A stretch of 63,860 bases of DNA, counting the filler, from Hausera hauseri (Eukaryota): the NCBI GenBank assembly GCA_046269625.1. It is 12 parts of 12 records of this genome, joined end to end, with 100 filler letters (N's around TTAATTAATTAA, not from the genome) between each part and the next. Parts side by side here need not be neighbours in the genome. Positions count along the whole stretch, not along the records: positions 35,136 to 39,306 come from JBJURY010722769.1; 11 more parts are not named here. The stretch is one strand, 5' to 3'. The stretch's first letter is position 1. Every line of letters begins with the position of its first letter. The translations under genes were made by a program, and so were the position numbers. The notes under the pieces were generated by a model. That model worked only from the letters and a program-made list of their open reading frames with translations, did not search any database and was not told where the DNA came from. Shown here piece by piece: positions 21,811-62,074 of the stretch.

Positions 21811-22610
21811 TTTTGTATTTTTTGTATATTAACGTATTTTGGGATCTTTTGAAAATTGTTATTTGAGATAAGATTTTACGAAAAAAAAATTTTTAAATTT
21901 GTGATTTTATTTAGTATTTTGTAAGGTGGAACCTTACAATTTACATAATTTACATAAACCAAAATGTATACATAATCGACGAAATATGATAATTTGATCA
22001 ACGCACTGCACTTTGGCATAACGTGAACGACATGCGGGAGATGGAACTTTGTTCAAAGATTTTACCAAGTTCAAAATTCTTCTGCATGTTAGAAGGGGAA
22101 ATTGTAGAAGTGTGAAATGACGTAACAATTTTAGATTTGCTTGCGAAATTTTTTCATATCACAACTGGCATAAAAATATTCTGACTAGCAGTAAAGTAGT
22201 TTTCAATGTAATAAGGTCTTTGTACAGCAACATTCTGATAGATCCAGACTTATCATCAATTTTCCACAAAAAATATCTGAGTAATGTTCTTCATCATTTA
22301 CTGGGAATAACTGTAAAAGGAAAATATGAGTTTCTAGCTGAAAGTTGATATGAAAATAGAATACTCAACGAATATATTTATGTAAACAGTATAAAATTAT
22401 AAACTCGTTATACGTGTCATGAGGACATTATATCAACCATATTTTGATTTGGAGTCTGGTCAGATGATGATTGTACTGAAATTCTTTTTTAGTTCCGATG
22501 TCTGATATCTAATGTATGTTTAACGACCTGGACATTTTTGCACAGAACTGTATCTTACAATTGTCATCCATGGGTGCTGATATGGCACGAGTCACTCCCG
22601 CGACCACTGC

Positions 22611-23945: not shown

Positions 23946-26200
23946 CGAAAAATAAAGTGCTCTGGAAATGTCCGACAAATAGTTAACAGAAACATGTTTG
24001 CTGAAAGTAGAACAATAACTGCAATAAGAACCAAACGTAATTTTTGCGACAAATTTAAGATACGATAACTAAACGTATAACTCAAATGGTAATAAAATGA
24101 TAACCGACTGTCTCCAACAATCAAATGAACACTGATTGAGAAAGGTTCGTTGAATTGAGATTATGGAATTGTCACAAGACTTTTGAGGTTAGTATCTGCT
24201 AGTTTCGAAGATTCTGTGAATTCCAAATCACACCAAATACGAGAGGATTGAGCGTCTATAGATTTTTCTGAAGAATTTTGCTTTTCTCAAAAAAGCACAG
24301 TGTCTTCTAGCGTAAAGCGAAAGTGACAAACGTTAAAACGTAGGACCTTGAACTTTTTCTTTGACCTTGGGACTGGATAATTTGGTCCTGGGTAATTTGG
24401 GCAATTTCGAGAGTTTCAGTTGCTTCGGAAATTCGGAACTGGGCGATTTCGTTCTGTATAATTTTGACAATTTTCTTATTAACCACATGGTGACTGACTC
24501 TGTCAAGCAAAGTCCACTGCACTTGTTCGTTAGTTAGTTTTATATTGAAGGAATGAAAGGGAAAATTTCATATTTACAATGACTCACTACTCACACTTGA
24601 AACTAATTACGTCTTTTAATGTGTGCAGATTATTGAGAGACGAACTCGATGATTTAGGCCGGATCGTGAGTTGAAAAGGAAAAAAAGAAATTTCTTGATA
24701 TATTTTGCTGCGCAATCTGATTAATCAAGCACCGAAGACCAAGACCGAGAGGCAATGTTGTAACCGGAACTCAAGCCGGTTTACGAGCATTCCACGCCGA
24801 CAACTTGTCAAGCAATTGCGTTGTGCCCGCGACCGCGGCACTATAAAAGGGTTTAACATAATCAAAAAAAGAAGACGTTTACATACGTACAAGGATTTAG
24901 TATTTATACAAAATATTCATATTGTCATAGTCCTTTACTATGGATTGTAAGATTTCAAATCACAAAATACTTGTTAATATTATTGTTTTCGAATCATTTA
25001 AATAATTGTTAATATATATCAATTTTTGATGGTTCGGATATTCTGTATTGATTTTATCTAAGCTTGAATTAGAATTTTCAATTTGTAAGTCTAGATTTTA
25101 TGGGTTTATTTTAATAGCATACCCTAACACTATCTCGAAAATATTCATGTACATAGATAATGTCATCAGAATTAAGGTTTCCAGCCAGGGCGGAACTAGC
25201 CCGGGATATATAAATTTAACATGCTTTTTGTCTTGGGGTCCCGGGTTCAAATATTTATTAAAATATCGGACTTCCCGAGATGAAGTTAAAATAGCCCGGC
25301 ATATGCTGTCAAGTCAGTCGCTCATCTTATATATAACACTCATTATTTTACAACTGTCTATGAATAATTACAGAGAAACAAAATAATTTTGATTCTTATT
25401 TAGACTTTTAAATACTGTATTAAGTAGCTCTGAAACATTTTTGTAAAATGTTTTTCACAACTTTTTGTAACGAGTACTGGATGCATACTTATATCAATAT
25501 AAGAAATATGCACATTATATATTGTTGTATATTATTGTTCAATTTGATTCCGAGCGAACGAAAATTTTCGGATTTCGTAAGGGTTACGAGGTTTTTTCAA
25601 GAAATGTGCTGTCTCCATGGGACTTTCAATGTAACAAGTAAGGTCCTATTGGATGTTCCTTAATAAGATCAACATTATTTATTAATAAACGACTGAAAAT
25701 CCAATAATTTATGATTCTCCAGTTTCAAAATGAAGGCTTCCATGTCTCTCACAATGGTATTGCTTTGTAAAAACCCTTTCTTGTTAAGTGTCCAATGCAA
25801 TAAATACAGTCTCAATCAGGTTATAGAAACAACATTTCTTGAACTTTCATTGTCAGTACAAATTTCTACTGGATCAATTTAATCCACTTGGTCCTTAGAT
25901 GTTTAACAAATCCTCTAACCAACTAGTGCAAATCATGCAGACAGCAATTTAAAATATTCATTCAACAACACCTAAAGTTATATTTAACCTCTCACAATTG
26001 AATTAGAAAATCTGTATCCAATAAATGATAACTTCATAATTATTAGAATTGTACTGTAAAATTGATAAATAAACGTTATTAATAATGATGTTTGACTACA
26101 TGTGAATGCCAATGCAGCCTGTGAATATTGCCTGTCTCTTGGCGAATAAAAAATATTTCCATGTCTTTGGTGAAGATAAATCCAATAAAATCCAAGGCCA

Positions 26201-30349: not shown

Positions 30350-31850
30350 GTGACGGATCACAAAGCAGTTACAACACTAAAAGGACGAGCTAATAACCCA
30401 ACATGCAGATTAAACCGTTGGATCGACGAAATTTCACGATATAATATTGAATTTCAATACAAACCGAATAACAAGCACGTTGACGCTGATGCACTGTCAA
30501 GGCTAAAAACAAAAACGAGTGCAATCATTACATTAAAGAGACCACAACTTGAACAGCTGATTGAACGACAAAGAACCCTAATATCGGACAAGACGCTTAG
30601 AATGACGGCTGAACAGACTAAAGATACAGTTATTCAGCAGATTATCGAGTTCGTACAAGACAAAAAGATACCGAAAGGACGACATGTGAAAAAGCATCTA
30701 CAGAAGCACGGACATAAATATCATGTATTGGATCAAAATAATATTTTGTATTACAAGCGTAAAGGGAAAAGACTAATTGTACTTATGGCCGAACATGATT
30801 CATATTTAGCCGGACACATGTCTTGGAAGAAGACATTAGAAAGGATATTAAATAAATACTATTGGCCAAGCATCTATATTAATGTAAAGAATTGGGTAGG
30901 AGCATGGGAAGTCTGCGCGACAAAACAAAATAAGACGAAAGGCTACGTAGCAGAATTAAAACTTACAAGTGTACCAGACAGGCCTATGCAAGCCGTGTCT
31001 ATGGACATAGTAAAACCGTTACCAAAAAAACTCACAAGAATAACAGATATATCTTAACATGTGTAGATCAACTCTCACACTTTGTTGAATTGGTGGCACT
31101 GTTAAATCAAAAGGCAGAAACTCTAGCTGACGCAGTAGTTAGGAAAATTATTTGCAGATATTGACCACCAGAACAAATTTTAACGGATAGAGGAAGAAAC
31201 TTTACGAGCGAACTATTTGAAAAAATTACTAAAATATTTGAAATCGAACGTTTAACTACTACCGCGTATCACCCTCATGTAATGAAATGGTCGCGCAGAT
31301 GAACGCAACAGTTATTCGGATATTATCAACAGTAGTGGCAAAAGACCAAACGGATTGGGACTAATTCCTAGAAGTAACACAATTCGCAATCAATACGACA
31401 CCATATCCAGCGACAGGGTTTACACCATTCTTTATGATGTAAGGACGAGAAGCAATCTTACCCCCAGATTTAGACATGACACCCTACGAAAAGAACCTCG
31501 AGGATCTGGAGCAAAACTTTGTTGAAGTTTTGCGGACAAGACTGCAAAAATGTTGGGAAGTTGCAAAAACATTTTCACTTGAATATCAGGAACAAATAAA
31601 AAAACAATATGATAAAAAGACTAAGCCTCATGATCTGCAGAAGGGAAATTGGGTTTATATACATTACCCAGTCGCGAAGAAAGGTACCTCCTCGAAATTA
31701 ACACGTACCGGTAGAGGACCTTATGAAATCATCCGCACCACGCCGACCACGGTCTATGTTAATAAAAATGGTAAAGAGGAAGTCGTATTGATTCAAAGAG
31801 TAGTTAAAACAGATATAAGGCCAGCTAAACACTACAATCTAAGATCATGA
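30350..31850 (+). pseudogene. pol: Ty3/Gypsy pol, RNase H end plus integrase
   Basis: TDHKA, RLNRW, H.DADALSR, HDSYLAGH, YYWP, MDIVKPLP, LTDRGRNFTSELF, TAYHP, GPY, HYNLRS. Confidence 0.92.
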
Positions 31851-33292
31851 GAAAATAAAACTTCGTCGATCGTCACTAAACCAGTATCTTATGCACAGAT
31901 AATAGTAGCCTTATCACTGATTGCTCTCCTGGCGCCTGGGACTAATGCTCAATGGTGGGTAGATTAAACTTCGTTGAACGATATATATGGAATCAAGAAA
32001 AGCGGATTAAAACCTTCACCGCCAAAAGAAGAAACTTCCGAACACAAATCGGACAAAAAAGCTGAAAAATTTTTATGAGCAATAGAATTAGATTATTTTT
32101 CGTCAGAAGCACCATGAGTCGGATTTAAGTTATTAGGACCATATAAACAGCGAATTCAAATAATACTCCATGACTTGTTAAGCCAAGCCGAGTCCGAGTA
32201 CCATTTCGAACCGAACATGATACTAGTTGCTGTAACGTAGAGTACGGACACTCTTACACCCTCAGCTATCGTTCAAATTTGCCAAATTGTAATCATGTAC
32301 AAGCTGAAACAAAGCTGAATGCACGTTTAATTATACCACGAACTTATGGAGACTACCTTGATATAGAGCTGGAAGACATGCTCCAATCCAATGATCCATT
32401 AAAACCGATGCTAGAGGAAAATATAGCCAGCATAACGGAAAATCCGAAGGACAACTGTGTTTAAATAAATACAAAAGTGCGATTAATTAACGGTCGAGTA
32501 ATCACAGTTCAGTTCGTAAAGGAGAACAAAGCAGCTCCGGACCAACAATACTGCCAAATTGACGTCGAACGACCGAAAAGATGTTGCAAGTTACCTCAGA
32601 AATATAAATATAGGATTCAATTAGACTTATATAAAGTTCCACTAAACCAGTCGAGTATTTATTTAGGAAGTTACCAGTTTGGAAATCCAATCGCGCAAGT
32701 TTCGCAGAAGATAACGAGTAGAATTACAAAAACAAAGACTGCCACTCCGATATCCACCAAAATCATCATAACGAGTGGATTATCTCAAAAGGATCTAGAA
32801 ATGATTCCTATAAAATATTGGACACAACAGCGTGAAATAACGTTCATTGGGGAAGAGACCCTTAACTACATTGTAGAAATAAGCTGCCGAACATTACACA
32901 ATAATCAGAAAGTAACATTGGTTAAAGGTAGCTATCGAACCAAATGCACCGGTCTGAAACTCAAAACGGACTATATAATACAAATGAGTGCAGAGAGCAA
33001 ACAAAGTAGAACGTTCGCGGTACGGATTGTAAATGAGATTGTCGTAACAAAACCACTGATTGATGAGAAAACTGAGGATGAAACTACGACTACCGCTAAA
33101 ATGAGAAATTTAAGTAAATGGACAACTTTGTCATTGACACCGATTATTGGAACGTCAGTATTTTCTCTCATAATTTTTATCGCGTTTTGTCGATTGATTA
33201 CCAAACATTTCTGTATTAAGCGCCATAAAATCACTGAGAGGGAATTAAGGATGATGGTACCACAGAGCGTAATCAATGATGGAATAACCTGA
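31851..33292 (+). pseudogene. env-position type I membrane protein: signal peptide, three FN3-like repeats, TM helix
   Basis: In the pol frame: IIVALSLIALLAPGTNA|QWW. Three (L/V)-x5-Y tyrosine-corner motifs; TM IIGTSVFSLIIFIAFC; short tail. Confidence 0.6.
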
Positions 33293-33394
33293 CAACTACA
33301 GATCGGGTTATTCCACCATCAAACAAAGAATTGGTTCACTTTTAGAACAATACGTTGTTTTAGGATTGACCCTTATTTTGTATTTCCTTTCAGA

Positions 33395-35020
33395 ATGGTA
33401 AGTATGATCAGCCGAATTAGTGTCGGCAATTTCCTACAAGAACACGCGACAGTATTTATACCAAAATCAAGATCCATCTACCGACGCATAACCGAAGTCC
33501 TCCAAGCAGAAACTTCAATTAAATTTTCAAAAGTGACCGAGATTTCAAATGGCCTAAAAGGTATAACAGAAGAAAATCGAACCATATACCTTTACGCGAT
33601 GCGTGAAAATAATCAAGCAGGAGCCTACTCACTAAAGGACTAATTCCAAAACTAAATAGTAAAACTAAAGATGTATACATATACCTAGCCGATGAAGAAC
33701 TATATTACAGAATAGAAGATCAACCATGAAACTCCAGTAAAGGGCATCAATACCGATTTAGTACGTTCAGGATAAACAGACAAGATTTAGAAAGTATCAA
33801 CTATGGTCTAGAATTCAGAATAGCAGCCATTCCTGTTAAACTTATGTTCAAAATAACCTACGGAGAAAACTGCAACTTAGGTTTGCCAGTTCTAGAATTC
33901 GAACAAACCCCAATCGAGGCAGAAAAGGACGAAAACCGTCAGTCATATAGGCTAGTCAAGGATGGCCGTAACATAAGGATTATAGCAATAAATTGTGGTA
34001 GAGGAGATGACGGATATGGAATACCCATCGAAATATCTGTTAAAGAAAGAGATGGTATCGAAATCTATTCAACGATCATAAACCCCCGGAAACATGTCCA
34101 AGAGTCGTTTGCAGAAGTGACTGGTTTGAAAAGAGGCCAGCTCATAAAAGGAAAAGATATCCAACAGGTCCGTTCAGAATTAGACCATTGTCTGTTAACA
34201 GGATACAACGTGAAACGGGAGATTGAGCTATTAGGGATATCCGATGCAAACATTGCTAGACTTAGGGAAATAGCCACTCACTCAATAGTCCAAGAACGAA
34301 TGGAGAAAACCGTACAAGGAAGAAATCGGCCAACCGCATCAGAAGCTTTTTTCAAACAATGGTCGAAGCCATGAGAAATGAATCAAATAAAATTCCAAAG
34401 CTCCTAACGGCCAGTCAACGTTCTAAATATCTACAATAAATTTATAAGTTATTAAAGTAGGAACATGAATGGGCCCCCGGAGGCCCTATATACAATTTAC
34501 GTAGTTTCCTGAAACCCGAACAAATAGACGTCATATATAGAAAAAACATCAAGCCCTACTCCCCGACAAGAACAGTCCAACCAACAGATAAACATAGTGT
34601 CATGATTACAGTACAGGAACCTATGGAAGAACAACAAGAAAATAAAACGGAATTAAGGACAAATGAAGAAGAAGACAAGACGTTAGAGGGAACATCAAAG
34701 CCTCCGCAAGAAAACAAAGAAGAACCAAGGCCAGAAACGATAATTAAGAAACCAAAGTTAGAAGAGAAATACCAGTCCAGGAAAACACTATCTATTTATA
34801 ACTATCTATTCAAGAAATAAGAGGATGAGGAACAAAAAGTGGAAAACCAACAAAACAGGCCAAGTACCTCACAGGAGATAGAACCTCTAAAAAAGGGAAT
34901 TAGAAGTCCCATAATAACCGAAATTAATGCCCTGATAGGAAAGAGAATGAAAGGGAATGTACATTGCAGAACAGCTCAAGAATGCTGGTAAATACCGAAT
35001 ATTATAGTACAAAGATAATG
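33395..35020 (+). pseudogene. Extra ORF with inactive DEDD (REX4/RNase T-like) exonuclease fold and acidic tail
   Basis: IIAINCG...IEISV...G.EIYSTIINP...VTGL...LTGYNVKREIELL follows the DEDDh pattern with catalytic acids replaced. Frames 33395-33643, 33844-34374 and 34602-34820 can be joined. Confidence 0.6.
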
Positions 35021-35035
35021 AAGGAAGCCGTGTTC

Positions 35036-35135: not shown

Positions 35136-35303
35136 CATATATAAAAATTTTGGCCTACGTAACCGACAAATTCATAAATAAAGTTCGATAATTTCCGTAA
35201 TCATTGCTAAACAATTTATATTTACAGTTTGGCAATTCTGCATTTTAAATTATTTCAATGACCACGGTTCAGCTTACTGCATCAACCATCGCAGTTCGGT
35301 TTA

Positions 35304-38300
35304 TCACAGTACCGATAGTTGTCTCAATTCCCTAATTAGGTCCGCATTATAGTCGATTTCCTTTATTTTTCTTGGCCTTCCGACCGGTCGTTTCGCTTTC
35401 ATCAGTGGTAAGGTTTCGTCTATATGAACTAAGTTCCTATCGTATTGCTGTTTGTCATCATCAGCCTGTAAGTATTCGAAATACATTTCGGCATCCTGAA
35501 TCCCCATAATTCTTCCGACGCAATGCTCTGCATGTGCTTTTCTCATGGCTTCTTCTTTGGTTTGCTCAGTGACGATTATTGCTATTATTCCCTATTAATC
35601 CCTACATCTGCCAAGGCTTCTAACTCGTCTAATATCCTGCCCTTGAAATTGAGTCCGTAATTAACTCCTTCCCTACCATCCTTATTCATTATCCGCTATT
35701 TTATATCCCCAACGGTGGTATGGGTAGTGCATTCAAATTCCTCGTCGTCCATCCCTTTGGATGATACTTTCACTTTAATTTCTGCTTCTGGTTTGTCTTT
35801 CAATAGTTTGGCGTATTATCTCACCAGGAGCTTGGGTACAGCGCTGTATATGGTGTTTTCCCTGGATAGCTCGGTCAAGATTGGAATCAATTTCCTTAAC
35901 GTACCTTTACTTATGTTTATTTTCAATATACTGCTTAGTTCCTTTCCGCTAACGTGGAATCAAATAGCATTTGTACGTCGAATTTCGTCTTCTGAGTACC
36001 AATAGGCGACTCATAAATTTGTATTGGAATTCTTTGGCTTTGCTGGTTTAAACCTTGGAGATATTCAACCTCTCAGCATTGTTATGCGGGTCCGGTAACT
36101 CTTAGTTTACTAGTGCGGCGTGACCAACTTGGACTCTTTCGCTCAGTTCTCTTATCTGTGGTTGTAATATTTTCATTATGGATATCCTAAATCTATTTCC
36201 GTTTTCGCAAGCTTCTTGTATCATTTTTATTAACCGGCACATTTCTTCTGGTGGTATCAAGGCTTTCTCTTAATAGTTAGTTATTTCTGCAATTCTATCT
36301 CTTTGCCATCTTTGTATAAAGTCCATTTTCTCATTAATTTTAGATTCCGTAAGGGAATACTTGTTCTTATAAATTTCTGCCTCCCTCAGTAATTAGTTTA
36401 GCTCACGTTGTCTTTTTCGGAGCGTAACCGGGTTTCTTTCACCAGACGGATTCGATCCTTTAGTCGTCTGGCTACTACTTCGTCAATTTCTGCCACTTCC
36501 GTTAACAGTAGGATCAATTTGTGCATCTGATTCAATACTTTGGCGTCCGGATCTATCGCGTCCATCAGCATGCCTATGAACTTGGCTTCGTTGGATGTCA
36601 GCTGAAGGTCCTTTCCAATTTCCGTTAGTTCGGTATGGCAATATAGGTCGAAACCTGGTGTTCATCCTGCTGGATTCTGTAAATATTGTAGTGATTGCGC
36701 CAGAGCAATCCGGTGATCGTTACATACCTCTAATGTTTCTATTTCCTGTGCTGAGATTTCCTTTAACGGTTTCTGTATTAAGTTTTGTATTCCTTCACAA
36801 AGGATGTTTACTAAACTTCGCTGAAGATCACTTAGCTTGATTCTTTTTCTGTTGAATTCCTTCCTTTCTATCATACTATATTTTTCTGTTAGTGTTGTTC
36901 GATTTTGATCCTTGCTCATAAATTCAAGTTTCCGGAATGATTCGAATTTAATTCGCAATTTTGCTTCATCTTCCATCGTACCGATGCCTAGTAACATTTC
37001 CCCCAATTGGTGTCTCATTATAGGCTCAACCATAGCGAATTCTTTTAGTCTTTTATTTATTATCCCTGATATGGAAGGCAGCAAATCTATCCACTTTCTT
37101 ATTTGTTTGGATGTTGCCGGTTTAATATAGATTGTTTTGTCTAATGTGTCAAGAGCTTCTTTATTTCGTGATCTGGCCCTCGTGGAAATTCTATGATATG
37201 CTTTATGTAGTTGAATTCTTCCTTATACTCATGTAATTCGGGAAGACAAGTACGTATTTTTCTCTGTGCTTCTGCTTTTTCAGGGTGGACTATGCCGATC
37301 CTTAAGTCGTTGATTTTGGTTCGCATTTCCTTTTCTCTTTCAATGCGTATTTTTAAATCGGGGTATTGGCGAAGGCTATCCTTTATTAAGCTGCACATTG
37401 CTATTAAAGGAGAAATATTGATTTGGTCTATACCCAAGATGGACATAAATCAGTTCATACACTGGCTCATTATGGAGATGAGAAATTATCCCTTTTCGAT
37501 CTCATAAATCAATCCTTCTAAATTACGTCTTATGCGTTTCAGTTTTGGGTTGTCCTTCAGTGCGTTTAATAGTCTTTGCGCTTGATCAACCTGGTAGAGA
37601 AACAGCTCATTTCTATTTTACCACATTTTCGTAAAATCAATCCCACTCTTTACCCAAAGTACTAATTTATTTTGCCAACTTCTTATCAAGTCTTGCAGCG
37701 TTTCTTGGTGTTCGTAAGGTGTGTTATCTCCCTCTTTGTGAGGATCGGGTTTAAGCTTTTTATATAACTTTTCTATGAATTGTTGTTCTTTTCAGGAGAT
37801 ATCCAACTGTTTGCTCGTCTGTTGGAGTTTTTGCAGGCTCTCATGTAACCTTCAGGAATCATTCACTGTGTCTTTTATCTTAATTAGTTCGTTTGCATTT
37901 TTCCAAGATTTTCTAATCTTCCAAACTTAATAGGTTTTTCCCCTTCTGGTTCCTCCTCACTACGTGGTAATGAAAATATTTTATTAATTTCATAGATATT
38001 CGAAACATTCGTTGTTTCGGGAACGCTTTGAGTCATAACCGGAGTATTTAACTCCGTTTCATCTATTAAAATGATGATGAAGTCTTCCTCTTTTTCTAAG
38101 TCCTTTTAATAGGGGATCGGCAACTAGTTCCCTACCTTCTCCTAAGTGAAGGACTTCTACCTCTATTTTTTGTTATTTTGAGTATTAGTGGACCAGTGAA
38201 TTTTCTCTGAATCTCGTCTGTTATTTTGTCCTTATTTTGAGACGCGATATCGGTATCTGCGTCCAAGTCTACACTTGGAGACGTAGTTGGCTTCCCCTCT

Positions 38301-39306
38301 TCCGCTACTTGATTTAGGTTTTTCTTCCTGGCCATGTTAGTATTCTTAGGTGCTATAGCATTTTCGTACTCCGTTTTTGGTTCTCTTAATCCATGATAAA
38401 CCTCCATTAGCTGCAACTTTTCTTTATAGTTTTTCATGGCCTTGATTATTTGTGGATTATTAGATTCGCCCATATTGCTTACATACCTTCGTAAATCCTG
38501 CATCTCGATAATTATGCTTATATCACCTCGTTTTCCATAGATGCCTTCCAAATTATCCTTTATCGTGCTAGCTTTACTGGTCTCTGAGAATGACACGTTT
38601 CGTGGATTAGGATATGATCTAGCTATATGTCCTTCCTTACCGCATGAATAACATATCAGATTCCCGTCTCGGCCGATTTTTTGTCTCCCGTCTTCGTTCA
38701 CTGGTGATCTGGATCTGCCTGTTATTTTGGTTTGAATTGGTTGAACTTGCTAATCGATTCCACTATTTCCATTTTCGAAACTTCGATTATCTATATACCA
38801 ATTCTTGTTGCTTAAGTCATTATTTTGGTTCCTATCCGAAATATAACCTGTTTTATTGTAGGAATTGTATGTGTTCTGATTATCACTAAAGTTCCTATTA
38901 TTATATCTTGTGCTGCGATTAGTGGCATTTTGAGCTCTATTCTCATAGCATCGACTCTTATTATTATTATTAAATCATTTATTGTTTCGGTTTCTATCCT
39001 GATTTTCGCGATCGTTATTTCGGTCATATCTATCACCCTGTCTGGCGTATTTATTTAGTGCCATTTTTAAGTTCTGAGTTAGCTGTAATGCAGCCTTAAA
39101 ATTGTCTGGTCGAGCTAAAATTAGTTGCTTAACTAAGTCTCTGGACCATATACAATTTATCCATTGAGTTGTCACCATGACATCTAAATTTGGCGGGCTG
39201 GCCTTTTCTGCCGCTTCGCGTTTCGCGTCTGTCTTTGCCTTCGTTGCATTAGCTATCCCTAACGTACTTACGTAACTATTCGCTAGCTTTTTTACTGCGA
39301 ATGCAA
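35304..39306 (-). pseudogene. gag: Very long Gypsy-type Gag (capsid C-terminus, R/D/N-rich region, zinc knuckle, helical region, ubiquitin-like domain, AT-hook)
   Basis: QWINCI...RPDNFKAALQL, ICYSCGKEGHIARS; coding-like continuity through stops and frameshifts to 35304. UBL at 35779-35571; KRPVGRPRK. Confidence 0.65.
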
Positions 39307-39406: not shown

Positions 39407-40250
39407 ATGTAATTTCGTCTTATGTACCCTTGTTGACCGCACACATAGGATATTATGGGTTTTCTTTCCAGACAATTTCTGTTAATATGTCCTTCTTTCC
39501 CGCAACCAAAACATCTTGGTACGTGTTGGAGATTGCATGTCCGGCTTTTATGCCCGTCTTTCTTGCATGACCAGCATTTCATCATCCTCTTTGCATGCGT
39601 ATTGTGCAGTTTGAAATCCCTTCTTTCCTCTCTTGGTTTGGCAAATTTGTGCACTACCACATCCCGATAACTCCATCGACCATCTTTAGTGTATTCTCTT
39701 ACTTAATTTATCTCTTCCGTCTTAGTTGCCATTTCGTGAACTTTCTGTATTTTCGCTTTAATTTGTTTTACGTTTTTTTCGTCACTGCGGTAGATTTCTT
39801 TTCTCATCTCTGGATTGTCACAACGGTGGATCATCAGTTCCTCTGTTAGAGATTCCGCAGTTATTTTGTGGCTGAGGATGCCCTTCACCAGCTGTTCGAT
39901 TTTGTTGTAGGAGGCGGCCGGTTCGGCCCATTCATTCTGTAGTCCAGTGCTTCCCGCAGATCTCCGCACAGCGTTGTGAGTTTTTCAAAGGCTTTTCTCA
40001 ACCAATTTTGATAAACTCTCGCCTTCTGATTCACAAGCTGGTATTTTTCCTGTTCTTCGTCCGCCAACAGGCACAGGACCGCGGTTTCCCGATCCTACTC
40101 CTACATCTTTATGAAGTCGAAGTATCTCTCGCATTTTCCAATAAAGGTTGCCACGTTGTCACATTTTTAGAATTTTTTTGGCATCAAATTCTTCTCGAAG
40201 AAGTCTCTTCAAGCGTGGTTTGCCATGTTAGTAGATCGCGTTTCTACCAT
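39407..40250 (-). pseudogene. gag: Gypsy gag with three CCHC zinc knuckles (third degenerate)
   Basis: MVETRS start at 40250; CWSCKKDGHKSRTC, CFGCGKEGHINRNC, YVCGQQGYIRRNY. Confidence 0.8.
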
Positions 40251-40275
40251 TCCGATCTCAACGTCATTCGATGAT

Positions 40276-40457
40276 TGTATGATTGAACTCTGCATAAGAA
40301 ATTTATTACAAAAGATTTGTATAACAATTATCTCCTTCACTCATTAAATGATTTTTCTTTTCATCTTTTTTGAATTTCCTGACTTTATATAGGCTGTTCA
40401 TTGATTTAACTTTAAATTGAATTTAAACGTTAATATTCGCTTAAATTCCTCCTCACA
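40276..40457 (-). repeat. Probable 5' LTR of the preceding Gypsy element
   Basis: TG...CA ends with internal TATATAA and AATAAA, just upstream of the gag ATG. Confidence 0.55.
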
Positions 40458-41930
40458 GGGGAAAAATGGGGTTCTCCCTCACCCCGGGGGGAGGTAATCG
40501 ACAAAGGAATTTTCACATGTGCCAATTGATAGTGTATGCGGAGCACAATCGATCGGTAGTGTGCCAGACGACGGTGCCGCTAGGCACCGTTTCTAAGCAC
40601 ATTTTTGCACATTTGACAAATCGATCGCTTCACAGCACAGTATTCATCGAATCAATCGGGGCAAAGTGCTAGTCGATAGTGCACATCAGTGACCATCGAT
40701 GAGTGCATTGTACAGGTGTGCAGAAATAAATAATATCGGATTTCCGATAATTCCAGTATTGATGATTACGGCACCGCAACGGGTGCAATCGGTATCACAC
40801 ATGATGAACTGTGCCAATATGCAGTTAGAATTTAAATATACTGATTAATTCTCGAATAATTTCCAACTGAGGAAAAACTCGTATATGCCTTTCCGCTATA
40901 AAATAAAAATCGATAATATCGATCCGCGGCAAGCAGTTGTACGTAGTACACACTGTGAACTACCGATATGGAAATGCTCAAGGTGAAGGTACCTTGGATA
41001 CTGTTGCCAAGGCACTTTTTCTCTTTTTACATATTGGTCACTGGGCAGCGTAGGATTGATTGAATCGATCGGGGTTAAGTGCATGTGGATAGAGCACATC
41101 GAGATGCACCTTGATATACACTATGCAGATGCGCAGCACATGTGCAAGTGTGCAAAAATCAATAATATCGGATTTCCGATATTTCCAATATTGATGATTC
41201 GGACATGTGACCGGATGGGATCGATTGGAAACAAGGTGCAGTATATAAATGTGCAGTTAGAATTTAAATTTATCGATTAGATTTCGAATAATATCGATGC
41301 AAAGTGCAACTGAGAGAGAACCCGCATATGTTTTTAGGCCCTAAGGTAGGAAAATACGATATTATAATTAGCGGGGATAGATAGGAAATCGACTATGGCG
41401 ATCTCGAATCTCGAGTTGGATATACAAAATTCAAAAAATCTTTGGCCCAATTATCGAATATCGAACTATTCGAAAAATCTAACAGCGGAAGTCGATTCCT
41501 CATATATGAAAGCCCCCTTATGCATAAAAATTATTCCATGAAAATGTACTACATAAATATATAATCATTATTTCGAATTAAGCAAAATGTGTTTTTAAAG
41601 CCCAATGAAACGAAAATCAATAAATCTATAAGCGGGACGGGATAGGAAGTCATGTGGGTAGAATTTGAATCTTGTGTTAGATATTTAAATTCGAGCTTTC
41701 AAGTCAAATACTTTGCTATTCGAACTAGAATATTCGATCAAGCATGCATTATTCGAAGAATTTAATGACGTTATTCGATTCCCCATATAGGAAAACCTTA
41801 AATTTGGCGCCGTCTTCTATTTAATTTAATTCATGCAATAAAACAAAAAGCACATTAAACTGATCAATAAGCGAGGCAGTACATGGTGATATGGCAAAAA
41901 ATTTCATTATTTCCAAAACCACTTCAACGA
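40458..41930 (+). repeat. Terminal (TIR-like) non-coding region with about 430-nt and 260-nt internal tandem units and hairpins
   Basis: AATAATATCGGATTTCCGATA...GCAGTTAGAATTTAAA recurs at about 40729 and 41161; AGCGGG..GATAGGAA recurs at about 41370 and 41631. Confidence 0.75.
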
Positions 41931-44900
41931 ATGGCGAGTTTTTTAATTGTGCGCCTCAAAATAATTGGTTGATTTTTAGATGTGCAAACTTCACAGCGAA
42001 TGTTTGTCTCAAATCAGCAAGCCTGAAAATTGCCACAGTATTATGAAAAAGTACTTTGGCCATCTATACAACAGGGTTCAGTATTATATATTAACTACAT
42101 GTAAAGTAGTGTGCCAAACCAATTATGAAGACTTTGACAATGTACATAAACAGCACTTGATTTCCTTCACCAAGTCGAAAAAACAAATATGCAGTACCAA
42201 TATGCCAATAACGACTTTCGTGCCAAAGGAAAATCAAAGATGCAGTTCATATGTGTATTGCACATGTATAATACACAACCCTCAGAATTGCCACAATACC
42301 ATGAGGAGCTATTATGGACACAAATTCAATAGGATCACTTATTATATTTGCTCAGGATGTGAGGCTGTATGTGATGAAGAATACATACAGTTTTATAATG
42401 ATCACAAACATCATTTGACTGACTTCACATAAAAGTCAAAGAAGATCATCTTTAATGAACATAAGCCAGTTGCACAGCCTGTAGTACAGCCAGATGCAGG
42501 GCTAAAACGCGCATCAGGCGCATCAGGCGTAGCGGCTCCAACAAAAAGTCAAAGACAGCGGCCAGTTGATGCTACAGTATTAAAGAGGAAATCTGCAAAT
42601 ATGTCATTGATGCAACTGGTTAAAGAACCATCAAGGAGTTCCTGGAGTACACAGAAGAAGAAACAGAGGGAGTTCTCTAGGACAACATAGTTGAGCTCGA
42701 GGCCATTAAGGCTAATATGAAATTGGAGGCCACATACATCAATGTTGATGACGAAGAGTTCAAAAGTGCCTTCAAGACCACAAGTAGACCCATTTTTGAA
42801 GCCACCAATATAGTAGAATGGTTGCATGAAGAGCATGCAAAGCTGAACCGTGAAGCCGATGACAGCCAGAGTAAGAAGAACGGATGGACTCTGGCAACCG
42901 TCAAGAGATTGCTTGTGTATGTTCACGAGTATTCTCCCATGAGGGGTAGTTCATATATCTAGCTTCCGGAATGGATCGCTAAAAAAGCATGTGTCAATGT
43001 CCATGAAAAAGACAACAAGTGTTTCATGTATGCCATTTTACGTAAACTCGTACGGGATCAAAAACATGCAGCAGTACTATGACTTCCAATGTATTAAGTT
43101 CCCTCCATCCTTAGATAAAATTAAGAATTTCAGCCGAATCAACAACATATCCATCAGCATCATTGGATTGGATGAGGAGGACAAATTCTATCCCTTGCAG
43201 ATATATGATACTGAATTGGAAGATCATATGGATCTGCTCCTATTAGACGATAGAGAAAAGAAACATTATGTTTGGATCAAGAACTTTAAGCGTCTAGTCA
43301 CATCCAAAATTACGAAACATAAGGAAAGAATCGAAATATGTAAACGATGCTTTTCCAATTTGAGTGGGGATTCAGCAGTGGATAAGCTTGCAGCGCACAA
43401 GATGTACTGCAGCAACAAATACTGTGTGAGGGCAGAATTTCCCAAGGAAGACTATATTGCATTCATGGAGTTCGAGAAGAAGATCAAGGTCCCAATATCT
43501 ATTGCAACTTTGAAGCTATTCGTCGGCCAATTCACAGCTGCACTGCCAGTCCTCAACATAGCGGCACAACGGCATACCAATATCATGAACTCTCATCGTA
43601 TTGCATGTATGCCAAAGGACTAGACAATGAATCATTTCTATTCAGGGTCCAGGCGCAGCAGCACATTTTATGAAACGACTTGAAGATATGGCTCATAGGC
43701 TTGAAAACATGCTTCAGCAGCATAAGGAAACATTGAGCATGTTGTGAAAACAAGCAGAAGAATGGCGCAAGGCAACAACATGTTACTTGTGCGACAAGTC
43801 CTTCATCAAGGAGAATCATAAAGTTAAGAATCACTGCCATTTTACAAGTGCACATCGAAGGGCTGCATGCAATAACTGCAATCTTCGCCGCAAAACATGC
43901 ACATATGTGCCTGTAGTGTTCCATAATCTCAGTGGCTATGATTTCCATTTCATAGTCCTAGAATTAGGCAACATTAATAATAATATAGATGTGATAACCA
44001 ACAGTGAGGAGAAATATATCGCCTTCACCAAGTATGTTGGGAAAATCAGACAGCTTCCGTTTCATGTCGTCTTCATTGGACAGTTTAACGAAGAACGTCC
44101 CTGCAAAAAAACTCAAGGAGACGAAGCGATTCTTTTCCATTACCTTTGACCTCGTTAAGAAGAAAGGCGTGTTTCCCTATGACTATATAACCTCATGGGA
44201 AACACTGGATGAGACTTCATTGCCGGCCAAGAAGGACGTTTACAATATCCTCTCTCACTGCGATATCTGTTATGCTGACTACCATCATGCCCAGAACGTC
44301 TGACATGCATTTCAATGCCGAACAATAGGACAATACAGCGACACATACATCAAGACGGACGTGCTGCTTCTGACAGATGTCTTTGAGAGTTTCAGAGATG
44401 TTACAATGAAGAACCATGCTTTGTATCCGGCTCATTTCTTTACGGCTCCAAGAATGAGCTAAGCAGCAATGCTGCGATATACGGGCATAATGCTGCAGAT
44501 CATTAAGGATTACGACATGATCCTTATGATCGTGGGAGGCATTAGAGGCGGAATATGCCAGGACATTCACCGGTATAGTGAGGCCAATAACAAGTATATG
44601 GCCGAATACTACTCAAGAAAAGAATCATCATATATATCATACCCGGATGCCAACAACTTGTATGGATGGATAATGGGCGCCCCATTGACATATGATAATT
44701 TCAAATGGGTCCAGAATCCCCAAAACATCCCTATATTGGACCTAGATCCCACTGGAGATACGGGATACATACTGGAGGTAGATATGGAATATCTGGAATT
44801 TATCCACGCAAAGCATCAACAGCTACCTTTCCTCCGTGAGAGCAGGCCTCCGCCCCATGGAAAGCAGAGAAAACTGCTATGTCATCTGGGTAATAGGGAG

Positions 44901-45581
44901 AGGTATGTAGTCCACTACATCAATCTCCAGCAGGCAGTTAGACATGGACTGCGTATTACCAAGATCCATAGAGCCCTCCAGTTCAGCCGCCCATGTGGCT
45001 GCAGTCATACATAGATCTCAATACGNNNNNNNNNNAACGACTTTGGGAAGGACCAGTTCAAGCTTTACAACAACCTGGTCTTAGGCAAGACCATGGAAAA
45101 TATCCGCAACAGGATCAACATTAAGCTAGTATGTGACTGGAAGCGGGCAAAGAAGCTTATTGCCAAGACTAACTTGCATAGCAGCACCATATATACTGAG
45201 AACTTGGTAGGAATCCATATGCTGAAAACAGAATTGGTATTCAACGAGCGCATATATGTGGGTATCGCAATCCTCGACCTGTCAAAGACCCTGATGTGTT
45301 ATTTCCACTACATTATGGTCCCCAAGTACAATTCCATGCATCTGATGTATATAGATACTGGCAGTTTTATCTATCAGATCAATACAGAGGATATTTATGA
45401 GTAATTTGCCAAATTGGCTTAACACATGGATATCTCGGACTATGCGAAGGATAATCCCAACTATTCAATTGCCAATAAGAAAGTCCTAGAGAAATTTAAA
45501 GACGAAATGAATGGGACAATACGATCGAGATTAGTGGCTCTCAGATCTAAAATGTATGTTGTACATGTATGTGGCCAAGGA
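41931..45581 (+). pseudogene. Protein-primed DNA polymerase B (tandem Cys/His domain, terminal-protein-like region, vOTU-like, exonuclease with EndoVII-like insert, polymerase)
   Basis: GSSYI.LP, DNKCF...HYVWIK, NHCHFT...CNNCNL, FHNLSGYD, KGVFPYDY, DANNLYG, KLYNN..LGKTMEN, YIDTGS, KFKDE, LRSKMY. 10-N scaffold gap at 45026-45035. Confidence 0.92.
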
Positions 45582-45681: not shown

Positions 45682-45896
45682 TCACTCAAGGAATGAATAT
45701 CCAGATTATATCCAGAAATGTTCCGTTCTCCTCTGTACTGGAGGATCTCATCTCAGTGCATGGACTCCGTAGTTCGGAGAGAACCTCCCTTCATGGTAGA
45801 TTTTAATTAGAATGTTCCTAGTGCAGCGGTCGCTAGATTTCTTCCTAATCAGGAGAATTAATTAACAGAACAACAAAAAGAAAAAAAGAGAGAAAA

Positions 45897-45979
45897 GGCT
45901 CACTCAGCTTGCAGTGAGATTCGAACCTTAGACCAACATCACCAGAGGTGGACACCATACCTCGAGACTACTCAGCCCC
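45897..45979 (-). ncRNA. tRNA-derived Pol III unit (SINE head or tRNA pseudogene)
   Basis: GGGGC start, A-box-like TAGTCTCGAGG, B-box GGTTCGAATC, then T-runs; cloverleaf incomplete. Confidence 0.5.
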
Positions 45980-46020
45980 GTGATCAATAATCAGCCTCTA
46001 AAAAGGATCCATTTACTAAC

Positions 46021-46092
46021 CTTCTGTAGTTGTCAGATTTATTGTTTTATTACAGTCTTCTGTAGTTGTCAGATTTATTGTTTTATTACAGT
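46021..46092. repeat. Perfect 36-bp tandem duplication (DCNKTINLTTTE x2)
   Basis: cttctgtagttgtcagatttattgttttattacagt occurs twice in tandem. Confidence 0.95.
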
Positions 46093-46386
46093 CAATGTCG
46101 TATCCACCTGCGTCTTGTATCTTAAACTGAATGGCGTACGATATTTTCGGTTGTAATCCAAAGACTGTAAAATTCATTGACTTTGACAGGAAGATTGTAT
46201 ATTCAAGCTTGGAAACGGACGCCATGCATGTGAAAGACGAGCTTTTTCTATTGGTACAGTTGCTGATGGGGTAGAGTGTCATCATGACTGAACTTCTGAC
46301 TTCACCAGGTTCTAAAGAGAGCGTCGTGGCATTATGTGACGCTGAGATTATCGTGGCATTAACCGGGCAACTTGGCAGCGCAGAAT
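46021..46386 (-). CDS. Fibronectin type III domain exon (phase 1-1) of a host cell-surface protein
   Basis: ttcAG|ATTCTGCG...GAAG|GTtagt, 366 nt; PSCPVNATI...FTVFGLQPKISYAIQF; many N-glycosylation sequons. Confidence 0.65.
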
Positions 46387-46542
46387 CTGAATTATTAAAA
46401 ACGAAATGATAAGCTTAGAGTTAAATGCACATTAAGTATAAGATTCAAAAACATTTAAATAGTTGACACATAATAAGAATATTCTATTTCTCATGACAGC
46501 ATACTTGTTTCTTCTAGCTTTTATCTCTATTTTAATTTTAGA

Positions 46543-48621
46543 ATGCTGTTTTCCAAATATTTCCAAATTACAAAACATTTCGTCAAACGTAACTTTATTC
46601 ATTTACCGGTCAGTATTTCAACCGATGTTCAACATGCAATATTCAACAAAAATCCAATTGTAGCTTTGGAGAGTGCCGTGATTACTCATGGGATGCCATG
46701 GCCAGAGAATTTCGAAATTGCAATGGAATTGCAAAGTATAATTTCATCAAAAGGTGCTACACCAGCAACAATCGGAGTGTTACATGGGAAATTAAAAGCC
46801 GGATTTTCTACACATGAACTGGAACTATTTTCCAAATCTGTAATAACTGGAAAACCACTAAAAGTATCACGACACAACATTTACAATCATAAGCAAATGG
46901 AATTTGGCGGTACTACGGTATCTGGTACAATGATTGTTTCCAGACTTATTGGAATAGATATTTTTGCTACTGGGGGAATTGGCGGTGTGCACAGAAACGT
47001 GGAAAAAACAATGGATATCAGTGCTGACTTACGGGAACTTGGAAGGTCCCAAATCTGTGTCGTTTCATCTGGTATTAAATCAATTCTGGACATTCAGAAA
47101 ACATTAGAATATTTGGAAACAGAAGGGGTTTATGTTTGTACTTTAGGATCGAAAGAATTTCCCGGTTTTTTCGTAAAGTCTAGCGGACTGGTATCTCCAA
47201 ATTCGATTTATTCATTGCAGTCGGCTGCCGAATTAATTCAAGAAATGAAGACCTTAAATATCCAATCAGGTATGTTATTGGCTGTTCCAATTCCGGATAG
47301 TTTGGAAAAAAATGGCGAGGTTCTTCAAAATTCAATTGATATAGCTTTGAAAGAAGTCTCAGAAAAGAAAATTTGTGGAGCGGCTGTAACGCCTTTTCTC
47401 TTAAATCGAGTAGTTGAATTAACAAATGGAAAATCACTGATACTGAACAAAAGTCTTCTAAAGCATAATTCTGCAGTTGCAGCAGATATCGCCATTGAAT
47501 TAAGCAAAGTAACTAAGGAAATCTATACAGAAAAATTACGGGAAAAAACATTTGCAGTTGTTGGAGCTAGTATTTTAGACACGAATTCAAAGCTTGAGGA
47601 TCAATCGGTAACTTCCTTACAGACGATTGTCAAAGGAGGAACCTATGAATGTAATTCAATTGAAACATGTGGAGGAGTAGGACGAAACATGGCCGAAACG
47701 TTTTCAAAACTGGGCGAGAACTGTCTATTTTATTCAGTAATTGGAAATGACATCAAAGCAATTTATCTCATTGAAAATTCAAAACCCTTGGATTTTCAAT
47801 TTGTATTACGGGATAATGAACATGGTACATCAAATTGTACAGTAATAATGCTTGCTAATAATGATGTTCTTCTCCACACAGGCAATCTGAAATCATGCAG
47901 TAAAATAACACCAACCTACCTCGACACGAATATGGCAAAAGTACTCGACAAAATTGATATAATTGCCATGGATTTGAATGTGAATAAAAGTACATTGAAA
48001 TACATTATCGAAATGGCCAAATCAAGAAATATCAAGACAATACTGGAACCAACCGATGTACGACTAGTTCATAAAGCGGTGGACGTGATTCTGGAACTAT
48101 CACCGACTATTAACGGACCAATAGATATTATTTCTCCGAATATTTACGAATTCGTCGAAGTCATTAATTTGTTGGGTAAAAACAAAACGAATCTCATTTT
48201 GGAAAACGTCGAAACCCACCCGGATGATGTGTTTGCACAAATAAAAAGTACGTTTTCACAAACAAATCTGTTAGACATTATTCCCATTTGGATCATAAAA
48301 TTCAATCGATTTGGGATCATTTTCGTGTCAAAGGATGAATCGTTTTGGTTACGGCAATCGTCGTCTCTAATACAAAACAACATGATAGTGAGTGCATCTG
48401 GTGCCGGTGACTGTGCACTCTCCTGTGCAGTCTATTTGCGATATAGACAGAATCTATCGTGGGAAGAAAGCATTGCCGGGAGTATAAGAATTGCTCTGGA
48501 ATCGCTACAAAGTTCTAAAACGGTACCAGAGTCGATTAAGCCAGAAAACTATTCTAAACCACAAATTTTAGAGTGGATTCGAGATTCTTACAATAAGAAT
48601 GTGATAATTCTCCATAAATAG
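46543..48621 (+). CDS. Bifunctional pseudouridine-5'-phosphate glycosidase (PsuG/IndA) - pseudouridine kinase (PfkB) fusion, 692 aa
   Basis: VALESAVITHGMPWPEN, TTVSGTM, FATGGIGGVHR, DISADLRELG; PfkB motifs GGVGRN and SGAGDC. Intact and intronless. Confidence 0.95.
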   Translation: MLFSKYFQITKHFVKRNFIHLPVSISTDVQHAIFNKNPIVALESAVITHGMPWPENFEIAMELQSIISSKGATPATIGVLHGKLKAGFSTHELELFSKSVITGKPLKVSRHNIYNHKQMEFGGTTVSGTMIVSRLIGIDIFATGGIGGVHRNVEKTMDISADLRELGRSQICVVSSGIKSILDIQKTLEYLETEGVYVCTLGSKEFPGFFVKSSGLVSPNSIYSLQSAAELIQEMKTLNIQSGMLLAVPIPDSLEKNGEVLQNSIDIALKEVSEKKICGAAVTPFLLNRVVELTNGKSLILNKSLLKHNSAVAADIAIELSKVTKEIYTEKLREKTFAVVGASILDTNSKLEDQSVTSLQTIVKGGTYECNSIETCGGVGRNMAETFSKLGENCLFYSVIGNDIKAIYLIENSKPLDFQFVLRDNEHGTSNCTVIMLANNDVLLHTGNLKSCSKITPTYLDTNMAKVLDKIDIIAMDLNVNKSTLKYIIEMAKSRNIKTILEPTDVRLVHKAVDVILELSPTINGPIDIISPNIYEFVEVINLLGKNKTNLILENVETHPDDVFAQIKSTFSQTNLLDIIPIWIIKFNRFGIIFVSKDESFWLRQSSSLIQNNMIVSASGAGDCALSCAVYLRYRQNLSWEESIAGSIRIALESLQSSKTVPESIKPENYSKPQILEWIRDSYNKNVIILHK

Positions 48622-49373
48622 ACTTACGTTTTGTTTCAAATTACTCCTCATTTGTAAAGTAATATTATTGTTTGAATTTGTGTATGTATCTTAAGAATAC
48701 TGCCATGCAGAATTTTGTAGATATCACAAAGAAAAACCTTAAGCAAATTAGAAAAAACCATACATTAATTTATAATTTGGAATGTACATTATACTGTCAC
48801 CCTATGGGACACATTTTTGTTCATTACATGGAGCCCTCCATAGAGAAAACGTCTGTTATATGGCACGTTGTTAATATTGTAAAGGTTATTCAAATTATAG
48901 ACTAAATCGTATAGACTGAAGTAAAAGTCACCATTATTTAAATTTACAAAAATGATTAAAATGTTGTAATATCGTATTGTTAAAGATTTTTGTGCATTTA
49001 CTGGTAACAGCCAATTAAATTTGATAGATAATCCTGATTAGTTCTCTAGGTAATCATCGCTTCCGTTTAACTACTTTTCACAGTTTTAATACATTATAAA
49101 ACTGTGCTGATCCAGACTTTGTCACATGACCAGTTCTAACTCACAAGGAAACGAATTTTGGTGTAAATTTGGATTTTTAATAAATAGTCAGAGAGATGTG
49201 CAAAATATAATGCGGATTAATAATGTGAAAAAACGTTTGCCAAGAAAGCTAAAGTAATACATTTGGAGCCTTTAAATATAACAGCATTTCGTACTAGTTC
49301 AAATCTCCACTATGTTTAAGAATTTTGAACTTTGGCAAAATTTTCCTTATTTTTATCTAGGTATATGAAATTA

Positions 49374-51898
49374 AGAGGAAAATATACCGTCTTCCTCACG
49401 CACCTGGGAGGATAAATCGATAAATCGATATTGGACATGTGTTAGTCGACAGTGCACTCGCTGCACTATCGGTCGGCGCACGTGCATGGCGACGGTGCCT
49501 TTAGGCACCGTTGCCATGGCACATTTGCACTTTGCACATATTGATCGATCGAGGTAAAGTGCTCATCGATAATTCATATCAGTGCACATAGATTTATGCA
49601 CAATGCACTTAAGGAGCACATGTGCAAATGGGTGCAAATGGGTGCAAATTAATAATATCGGTTTTCCAATAATTCCAATATTGATGATTAGCACAAGGCA
49701 CCGCAGGCAATCGATTGGAAAAACGGTGCACTATACAAGCGTGCAATTAGAATTTAAATCCATCGAATGGTTTTCGAATAATATTGGTTTGAAAATTTAG
49801 TCAGGGAGAAAGTACGTAGGTTTTTAGACTCTAAGGAAGCAAAATTCGACAATACATTAAGCGGAGACAGATAGGAAACCATGTATGGAGATTTTAAATA
49901 TAACATCAGATATTCGAATTCGAAAAAAGTTTTGACCGAATATCGAACTAAGCACTATTCTAAACATCTGATTACATCATTCGATTTCCTTTGTTCTAAA
50001 ATCTATGAAAAATTTAAATTATTCAATGAAGATGTACTATATAGTTATAAAATCATTAAATCGAATTAAGCAAAATGCACATTTTATGCTCAATGAAGCA
50101 GAAATGGAAAAATGTTTAAGCGAGTTTGGATAAGAAACATTATATTCATAATCCGAATCCGATGTCACATATTCGAATACAAGTTTCCAAATCGAATATT
50201 TAGCTATTGGAACTCGAAAACTCGGTCAAGCATATATTGTTTGAAGAATCTGACCTATAATGAAATCGAAATTGGCACTGTGCAGCACTGTTTTCAATTG
50301 AAAAGATCAAATTTGGTGGCAAGTTCATGTAATTGATGCAATAAAACAAACTGTTCTAGAATATTCGAAAATCAAATTTTTAAAATCAGTAAAATCAAAA
50401 TTTGAATTTAAAAAATCTATAAACGCCGCAATGTGCGTTGACATAGCTGTATATTTTATTATTTCAGAAATCACTTCCAAGAATGGTGAGTATTTTAATT
50501 GTGCTTCTCAAATAATTGATCTATTTTTTAGACTTGCAAATTATACAAAGATGTTATATTTCAGTCACCTTTCAACAGGACTGAATACTATCTATGTCCT
50601 ACAAGCGAGATAGGGTGCCTAACTTGTTATGAGGACTTCTACAATGTCCATAAACAACATATGACTTCCTTTACCAAGTCGAAGAAACAAATATTCAATA
50701 CGAATATGCCTATGATATCTTACATTTCTCAGAAAATTTAAAATAGCAGTTCATACATGTATTGCACATCTGCAATACACAATCTGCAGAACTGTCATTA
50801 TACAATGCAGCGTTACTGTGGACACACATTTAACAGGATCGAATATTATATTTGTCCAGGATGTGAAACTGTATGTGATGCAGAATACATGCAGTTTCAT
50901 GAAGATCACGGCTCATTTAAGAGAATTCAAATGAAAGTCCAAGAAGACCATCTTCAATAAGCACCATAATCTTGTTGCTGCAGCAGCACAACAGGTTCCA
51001 AATACAGTACAGCCAATTCCAGGTGCAGTGCAACTAGTTCCACACACATGATTAAAACGTACAGCGGCATACTGGTATTAGACTGCAGATCTTGAAGGAT
51101 TATGATATGATCCTCATGGTAAAGAGAGGTATTAGAGATGAAGTATGTCAGACTATGCACCGGTATAGTGAAGCCAGTAACAAGTACACGGCCGAATAAG
51201 ATCCATCCAAGGCATCCTCATATATTACCTACTTGGATGCCAACATAAAGCCTTAAGATGACTTTAAATGGGTAGATCATTTAGAAGACTTAGCAATACA
51301 ATATGTAGATCCCAATGGAGATACAATCTACATAATGGAGTGGATGTTTAATATCCATATAATACGCATACAAAGCATGGACAGCTGCCTTTCCTCTCTG
51401 ATAGCAAGCAGCCACCTAATGATAAACATAGAAAGCTACTCTGCCATATGGAGAAAAGGGAAAATATGTAACCCGCTATATCAATCTCCGGTAAGCGATA
51501 AAGAACGGACTCTGCATCACAAAAATCGATTGGGCCCTGCAGTTTAGCCAGTGCATGTGGTTGAAACCTTACATGAACCTCAATACACAGCTGCGGGCCA
51601 GTGCCAAGAACGATTTCGAGAAAGATCAGCTTAAGTTATACAACAGCAGCGTTTTTGGCAAGAGTGGGAAAATATCCGGAATAGGATCAACATCGAGTTT
51701 GTATGTGAGTAATGCGAGCCAAAAAACTCATAACCAAGACGAACTTCCGCCGCAGTATAGAGACCTGGGTCCGGATCAATATGCTGAAGACATCTTTCAA
51801 ATTCAATAAGCCATAATATGTGTATGTCGATACTAGACTTGTCAAAGACCATGAAGTACCACTTTCACAACCACATTCAAGACTCAACAGCTTATGTA
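49374..51898 (+). mobile_element. pPolB element copy 2, internally deleted
   Basis: Homologous terminus 49374-50482, ATG-intron, Cys/His domain (50757-50960), then a jump to polymerase motifs (YLDAN, KLYNSSVFGK, ILDLSKT). Confidence 0.82.
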
Positions 51899-54800: not shown

Positions 54801-54992
54801 GTGAAGCCGATGAGAGCCAGGATAAGAGCGGATGGGCTCTGGCAACCATCAAGAGAGTGCTTATATATGTACACAGATACTCCCACATGCGAGGCAGTTC
54901 ATATATACAGCTTCCGGAATGGATTCGGCAGAAAAATGCTTGTATCAATGTCCATAATAATGACAACAAGTGCTTCATGTATGCCATTTTAT
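51899..54992 (+). mobile_element. pPolB element copy 3 (terminus plus 5' part of the polB gene)
   Basis: Begins AGTAGG; terminus 51899-53854; Cys/His repeats; SGWALATI...RGSSYIQLPEWIRQKNACINVHNNDNKCFMYAIL; cut by the contig end. Confidence 0.87.
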
Positions 54993-61394: not shown

Positions 61395-61439
61395 ACCTGT
61401 GTTTGACTGTGGTTTTGCTGAACACCGTGACAGTATCCT

Positions 61440-62045: not shown

Positions 62046-62074
62046 CGCAAATAATCATAGTGGCTTTTTATAAA

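Follow-up and report, generated by a model that had tools for sequence, protein, structure and literature searches.

The contig at positions 35136-39306 (4.2 kb) carries a decayed, truncated member of a highly repeated family. The family is probably one of Gypsy-type LTR retrotransposons in which Gag would have formed part of a single giant open reading frame with about 1,100 accessory codons, including a likely ubiquitin-like domain (UBL) and an AT-hook-like motif. The window, meaning the whole 63,860-nucleotide stretch of Hausera hauseri DNA that was analyzed (37.2% GC), consists of short contigs chained by N-spacer-N linkers, and the feature is confined to this one contig. Comparison with the other contigs of the window gives no blastn match, and a tblastn match at the zinc knuckle only. 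Read along the coding strand from Gag to the tail, the components are as follows.

39056-39304, minus strand: C-terminal portion of a domain resembling a Gag capsid, assigned by Atlas features; the contig starts inside it.
38657-39055, minus strand: Asn/Arg-rich linker with two stops, from the translation.
38612-38656, minus strand: single Gag zinc knuckle (Pfam zf-CCHC).
35816-38611, minus strand: charge-rich accessory coding region (31-33% K/R/D/E), decayed, defined by the frame path and with no detectable homologue in the parts searched.
35571-35779, minus strand: ubiquitin-like domain (Pfam PF00240, PF11976), with a stop at 35698, a frameshift near 35590 and no di-glycine.
35367-35393, minus strand: AT-hook-like basic motif KRPVGRPRK (AT_hook 14 bits, below the cut-off of 17.4).
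35304-35309, minus strand: junction at which the focal copy leaves the family sequence, and apparent stop of the reading frame, from depth and contig loose ends.
35136-35303, no strand assigned: low-copy tail outside the high-copy unit, covered by one contig and with strand bias lost.

The Gag-like piece belongs by Atlas features to a Caulimovir_coat_dom cluster (0.91, 53% of members) and a Retrotrans_gag cluster (0.88; recognition 2936), a match that we treat as a lead, its shared-feature counts being low and its three best matches unnamed, and it has no match in Pfam or among PDB sequences. The knuckle ICYSCGKEGHIARS matches Pfam zf-CCHC with 22.2 bits (E=1.5e-4; cut-off 20.8 bits). Its fourth ligand has decayed in the focal copy, and a Cys occupies that place in 32 of 32 like motifs from the metagenome loci matched; a query of metagenome contigs with the knuckle piece recovered 31 loci, with all 37 HSPs spanning the knuckle only. 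The combination that marks a Ty3/Gypsy Gag, a capsid domain followed by a CCHC knuckle, is thus present, with the knuckle above its cut-off and the capsid part by Atlas features only. There is no pol, LTR, primer binding site or polypurine tract on the contig, nor any LTR-like repeat, and assignment as an LTR element therefore depends on the Gag-like piece, which is itself an Atlas lead. Another decayed Gag, with as many as three knuckles, lies at 39407-40320 (minus strand) on the next contig; we did not join it to the focal contig, as the likeness is at the knuckle only and the linker between the two is artificial.

The initial annotation described about 1,100 decayed codons after the knuckle with neither protease nor reverse transcriptase, and this is borne out. 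Between the knuckle and 35310 there are approximately 1,097 codons with 14 stops and six frameshifts, where a random frame would give 78 stops, and protease and reverse transcriptase motifs are absent from the three minus-strand frames of the contig. A codon model trained on retroelement reading frames from other contigs scores the minus-strand path at 13.9, compared with a mean of -94.6 for shuffled sequences (sd 11.2, best -75.4, n=30) and -14.1 for the plus strand. Each of the 13 bins of 300 nt has one frame with no more than five stops, and the score is positive in 12 of them. The coding path thus runs on the minus strand, unbroken from Gag to the hook and with no non-coding gap. Pieces of the extension are 31-35% charged (K/R/D/E), with no clear membrane segment (the top 19-residue hydropathy is 1.61), and a Pfam scan of the six-frame translation of the contig (1,389 residues per frame) reports zf-CCHC and ubiquitin (E=0.022) only. 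A second AlphaFold model has a pLDDT of 35, and the helices in it are a hint only.

The element is highly repeated. The evidence for copies comes from one public run (X1), possibly the source of the window itself, in which 6,177 contigs match across the stretch, the UBL included. Most are 80-95% alike: 197 match at 99% identity or above, 748 at 95-99%, 2,400 at 90-95% and 2,832 under 90%. In 29 of 30 bins the summed depth lies between 458 and 13,411, compared with 4.7-7.8 where only contigs that match the focal copy exactly are counted, and while summed depth is not the same as copy number, the ratio points to hundreds of copies. We conclude that this is a multi-copy element with many diverged copies. 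Gag, extension, UBL and hook all lie within the repeated unit, and this rules out a single host UBL gene, answering the concern raised in the initial annotation that the UBL might belong to a host gene unlinked to gag.

The focal copy itself is dead. Five of its stop codons, two of them in Gag and the other three in the extension, have 98% or more of the matching depth differing inside the codon, and these breaks are therefore private to this copy. Within 35136-35900 there are 61 places, about 10% of repeat bases, where the majority of the family differs from the focal copy; of 40 such places listed, 36 could be classed by codon position (four near 35834-35861 were dropped) and they fall 16, 7 and 13 in positions one, two and three, a distribution that neutral decay of an inactive copy would produce. 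The focal copy makes no giant Gag-UBL protein.

One segment of the extension, near 37914-38143, is more variable than the rest. Depth falls to 458 at 37936-38075, there are several joints between 37914 and 38229, and a single contig with a depth of 124 bridges the variable stretch at 37914-38134. Next to this most variable stretch there is a stop (38134) and a shift of frame (near 38100), and neither is among the 40 of 863 entries listed. If Gag ended near 38134, the extension would be a separate accessory reading frame of the same element, and its product a UBL-hook protein unfused to Gag. The position of these two breaks agrees with such an arrangement, and it has precedents in the upstream accessory reading frames of Burro-like elements and the ORF3 genes of rotifer LTR elements, and in a Dugesia element whose MATH domain occupies a reading frame of its own, according to the portions of those reports available. 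Against this, the coding path is not interrupted by non-coding sequence, it crosses the point at 38134/38100 free of stops when the penalty on frame shifts is lowered, and the five other stops are private to the focal copy; we thus regard a separate reading frame as unlikely and prefer one continuous Gag reading frame.

Identification of the UBL depends on a modest but specific signal. With an X at the stop, the segment at 35588-35815 matches Pfam ubiquitin PF00240 (E=3.3e-4, 20.8 bits; cut-off 25.4), in agreement with the likeness to ubiquitin first seen by eye, although the E-value is near 0.04 after allowing for about 110 windows of such size in six frames. Four of four Pfam matches are to the ubiquitin clan, including PF11976 (E=0.0058, also below cut-off), and the outcome that the initial annotation named as refuting, the lack of any such match, therefore did not occur. 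In a PDB search (E up to 10), 58 of the 60 matches listed of 125 are ubiquitin or UBL-containing chains; the very low E-values among them are sums over the repeats of polyubiquitin, and a domain taken singly has a weak score (0.089 for viral ubiquitin). The translation first given for 35779-35571 stands as quoted from 35779 to 35594, with one stop at 35698, whereas its final IIAIIV is in another frame, past the break near 35590. The absence of a C-terminal GG, also claimed at the outset, holds for every in-frame piece, and among the 40 of 61 minority places listed there is no majority difference at 35554-35605. At the place equivalent to Ile44 most copies differ from the focal copy, and the patch is therefore unreadable from this copy.

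It is very improbable that the ubiquitin resemblance arose by chance or that it reflects a separate host gene beside a Gag fragment. Such an explanation would accommodate the Pfam scores below cut-off, an NCBIfam search with one unrelated weak match only, and a single-sequence structure model (input without the last strand) with a pLDDT of just 44, but it sits poorly with matches so consistently of ubiquitin type, with a UBL frame that is the one chosen independently by the codon model, and with a UBL as repetitive as Gag. Given the specificity of the Pfam signal and the decay of the copy, we consider the UBL very probably real, as judged from its sequence. As a likely ubiquitin fold that lacks di-glycine and is embedded in a longer polypeptide, it is like the integral (type II) UBLs such as Ubl1 of coronavirus nsp3, which binds nucleoprotein (PMC9938351 and PMC8769549, as far as these are available), with no homology beyond the fold, and it is unlike the conjugatable (type I) modifiers, which have the C-terminal di-glycine that it lacks.

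The hook peptide KRPVGRPRK, initially annotated at about 35366-35393, is present at 35393-35367, although as an AT-hook it is non-canonical and below the Pfam cut-off. Its core is V-G-R-P, where the AT-hook canon (PF02178) has an R-G-R-P core with basic flanks. In 2,000 shuffles the strict pattern, which was written after seeing the motif, appears in nine and the bare core in 153. Depth within 35136-35900 peaks at the hook (12,635) and the following helix (9,789), compared with about 450 just upstream, a peak that also reflects contig breakage, and the two listed family differences inside KRPVGRPRK are silent. Taken together, the depth peak and the silent differences suggest that the hook is under constraint in the family. 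The literature covered, which includes PMC6431247, PMC6338049, PMC13524379 and PMC5408684 in their available parts and has most subscription papers and Repbase outside its scope, reports no AT-hook in a Gypsy Gag extension.

The point at which the focal copy leaves the family sequence lies just beyond the hook. Depth is 3,782 at 35318-35343, 229 at 35292-35317 and 4.7 below that, and 17 contigs with loose ends at 35309 continue in other, mutually similar letters (agreement 0.89). The description of an extension ending in the UBL and AT-hook is thus not supported, because the focal copy departs from its family at about 35309. As the stop sits at the junction of this copy, it need not be that of the family, whose reading frame may end only a few codons farther on or run into pol. 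Extending the contig beyond 35136, as the initial annotation suggested, would not reveal pol, because element-like sequence already stops at 35309. In the tail at 35136-35303 the A/T strand bias of the body (65:35) has gone (60:58, P=0.002; one of 192 body windows is equally low). Its cover is one contig of run X1, 170 bases long and 86% alike with 23 other letters, whose ends are almost those of the tail, and no identical contig covers it, though other parts of the focal copy are matched exactly. The tail may be an insertion, the sequence of a minor subfamily or an assembly join.

The same junction bears on whether the family ever had a pol. A non-autonomous element with Gag and accessory sequences alone, TR-GAG-like in kind, ending its reading frame after the hook and moved by the pol of another family, would explain why no pol motif occurs in the 4.2 kb of the contig. 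By eye, the hook with its short helix also resembles the tail of a protein, and Gag-only non-autonomous LTR elements are published for plants, in the parts of that work available. We find this improbable, more so than the separate reading frame. With the copy cut at 35309 the missing pol is uninformative, and the high copy number fits either case. Our preferred reading remains a truncated copy of a Gypsy-type element with a giant Gag reading frame.

Searches for relatives of the extension were negative in their respective ranges. Word-seeded protein searches with 36398-37153 passed none of 2,004 longer and none of 628 near-length candidates, with proteins of more than 2,000 residues, such as ORF1 of the planarian element Burro, out of range. 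HMMER against 1.84 billion protein representatives gave no match to a query spanning 35588-37153, in which about 190 of the 522 residues are out of frame. Viral contigs yielded nothing for two pieces and one match to the basic motif only, metagenome contigs yielded nothing for the middle piece, and none of four exact look-ups succeeded. Two candidate assignments were rejected: a PH domain at 36665-37153 (Atlas clusters 0.81, recognition 1992) was dismissed as noise, and a Ddi1-like reading, in which a UBL is followed by a helix and a protease, is without Pfam or PDB support at 35304-35591.

The layout resembles, by description, that of Burro/GYPSM1, giant Gypsy-like LTR retrotransposons of dugesiid planarians, and the architecture that the initial annotation did not recognize among described LTR elements is in its central features already published for ORF1 of that element. 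According to the available portion of its description (PMC6431247; Arkhipova and Yushenova 2019), ORF1 of Burro encodes 4,873 residues that comprise Gag and its two or three knuckles, followed by Smc, MATH, a domain of Ubi2/SUMO-like type (PF11976), BCL2, env and pol, the element is present in thousands of copies with decaying fragments reported in one species, and meddling with host ubiquitination has been proposed for it. Both elements have Gag (a Gag-like piece in the focal element) and CCHC, after which accessory coding sequence extends for a great length with no protease yet reached (1,097 codons or more in the focal element), a domain matching PF11976 (below cut-off in the focal element), and many copies. 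They differ in that the focal element has one knuckle, and in that its approximately 1,100 codons have no Smc, MATH, BIR, ankyrin or BCL2 match, which decay or, for motifs downstream of the UBL, the cut at 35309 could hide; the AT-hook, present as a motif here, has no occurrence in the available Burro text (PMC6431247). Burro is more than 30 kb long with LTRs and an in-frame env and PR-RT-RH-IN, whereas the focal copy is cut, and a figure of more than 70% A/T is given for S. mediterranea, compared with the 37.2% GC of the window. With one knuckle and no MATH, BIR, ankyrin or BCL2 match, we do not file the focal element as Burro. Planarian Burro is the only ubiquitin-domain giant Gypsy polyprotein in the literature covered, and PMC11410931, PMC8532177 and PMC3383448, in their available parts, add nothing on the UBL.

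A second comparison is with the LTR retrotransposons of bdelloid rotifers, which are also of Gypsy type in animals and have acquired accessory domains, although there the extras (DEDDy, GDSL and TM) are ORF3 genes located after pol, and the available parts of the report mention neither ubiquitin nor an AT-hook (PMC5408684). The window contains the 3' part of another LTR element at 30350-35035 (plus strand), with an integrase zinc domain (E=9e-13), a reading frame that closes with a hydrophobic segment where env would be expected and then an extra reading frame at 33730-34374, whose sole PDB match is to a PolC exonuclease region (E=1.3) and which recalls the DEDD-type ORF3 genes of the rotifer elements. 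Its coding strand is A-rich (39% A, 23% T), as in the focal contig. Remnants of a Gypsy-like pol are also present at 1-7846, where 617 bases recur as an inverted duplicate (80% identity), and these are related to the contigs at 21811-26200 and 59735-63860.

Other contigs of the window speak to the identity of the host. An intron-free, bifunctional pseudouridine glycosidase/kinase gene of 692 codons at 46543-48618 (plus strand), on a separate contig, has one relative at 50% identity, and named insects, molluscs, fish and other animals among the 120 of 1,119 matches listed are approximately 30-42% identical, with no flatworm named among them. The gene is about equally distant from all of the named animals listed, which argues for a fast-evolving and little-sampled host lineage. 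Assuming that the contigs are of one organism, the host would be an animal far from its named relatives, and it is probably not a well-sampled planarian. Pieces of an ataxin-2-like host gene (LsmAD, PAM2) and a Dpy19-like host gene are found at 15068-16369 and 62992-63483, both on the minus strand. The segments at 40460-45581 and 45682-54992 are paralogous, decayed and 67-81% alike, with an Endonuclease_7 match (E=2.8e-4); they have reading frames that by eye resemble Polinton-type DNA polymerase B and that have no Pfam match.

Integral UBLs serve as binding modules, with Rad23/ubiquilin and Ddi1 as examples. In an active family Gag would build the particle and bind RNA through its knuckle, and the UBL, built into the protein and not conjugated, could serve for docking to a partner from either the host or the element, a role suggested by this established behavior and by the binding of nucleoprotein by nsp3 Ubl1. 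Candidate partners are the proteasome and ubiquitin machinery or, as with coronavirus nsp3 Ubl1, the nucleoprotein of the element itself; by analogy we would put a host ubiquitin-proteasome partner somewhat ahead of an element-internal one. The basic hook may serve in nuclear import, or may hold the replication complex to chromatin through the minor groove.

The focal copy is one dead 4 kb fragment with no pol, and its central claim has been published before, which limits its value. A second high-copy family whose extension differs from that of Burro, and whose host lineage probably does too, would nonetheless show that the design recurs, and its many natural copies could be used to look for selection on the accessory parts. 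A bolder proposal, which we hold to be possible but rather doubtful, is that this LTR family is unrelated to Burro, resides in poorly sampled and fast-evolving animals, and independently took up a ubiquitin fold and a conserved AT-hook that end a 1,100-residue Gag extension lacking known relatives. If so, giant Gag-UBL polyproteins would be a repeated invention outside the planarians, and Gag itself would be able both to attach to chromatin and to engage the ubiquitin system of the host.
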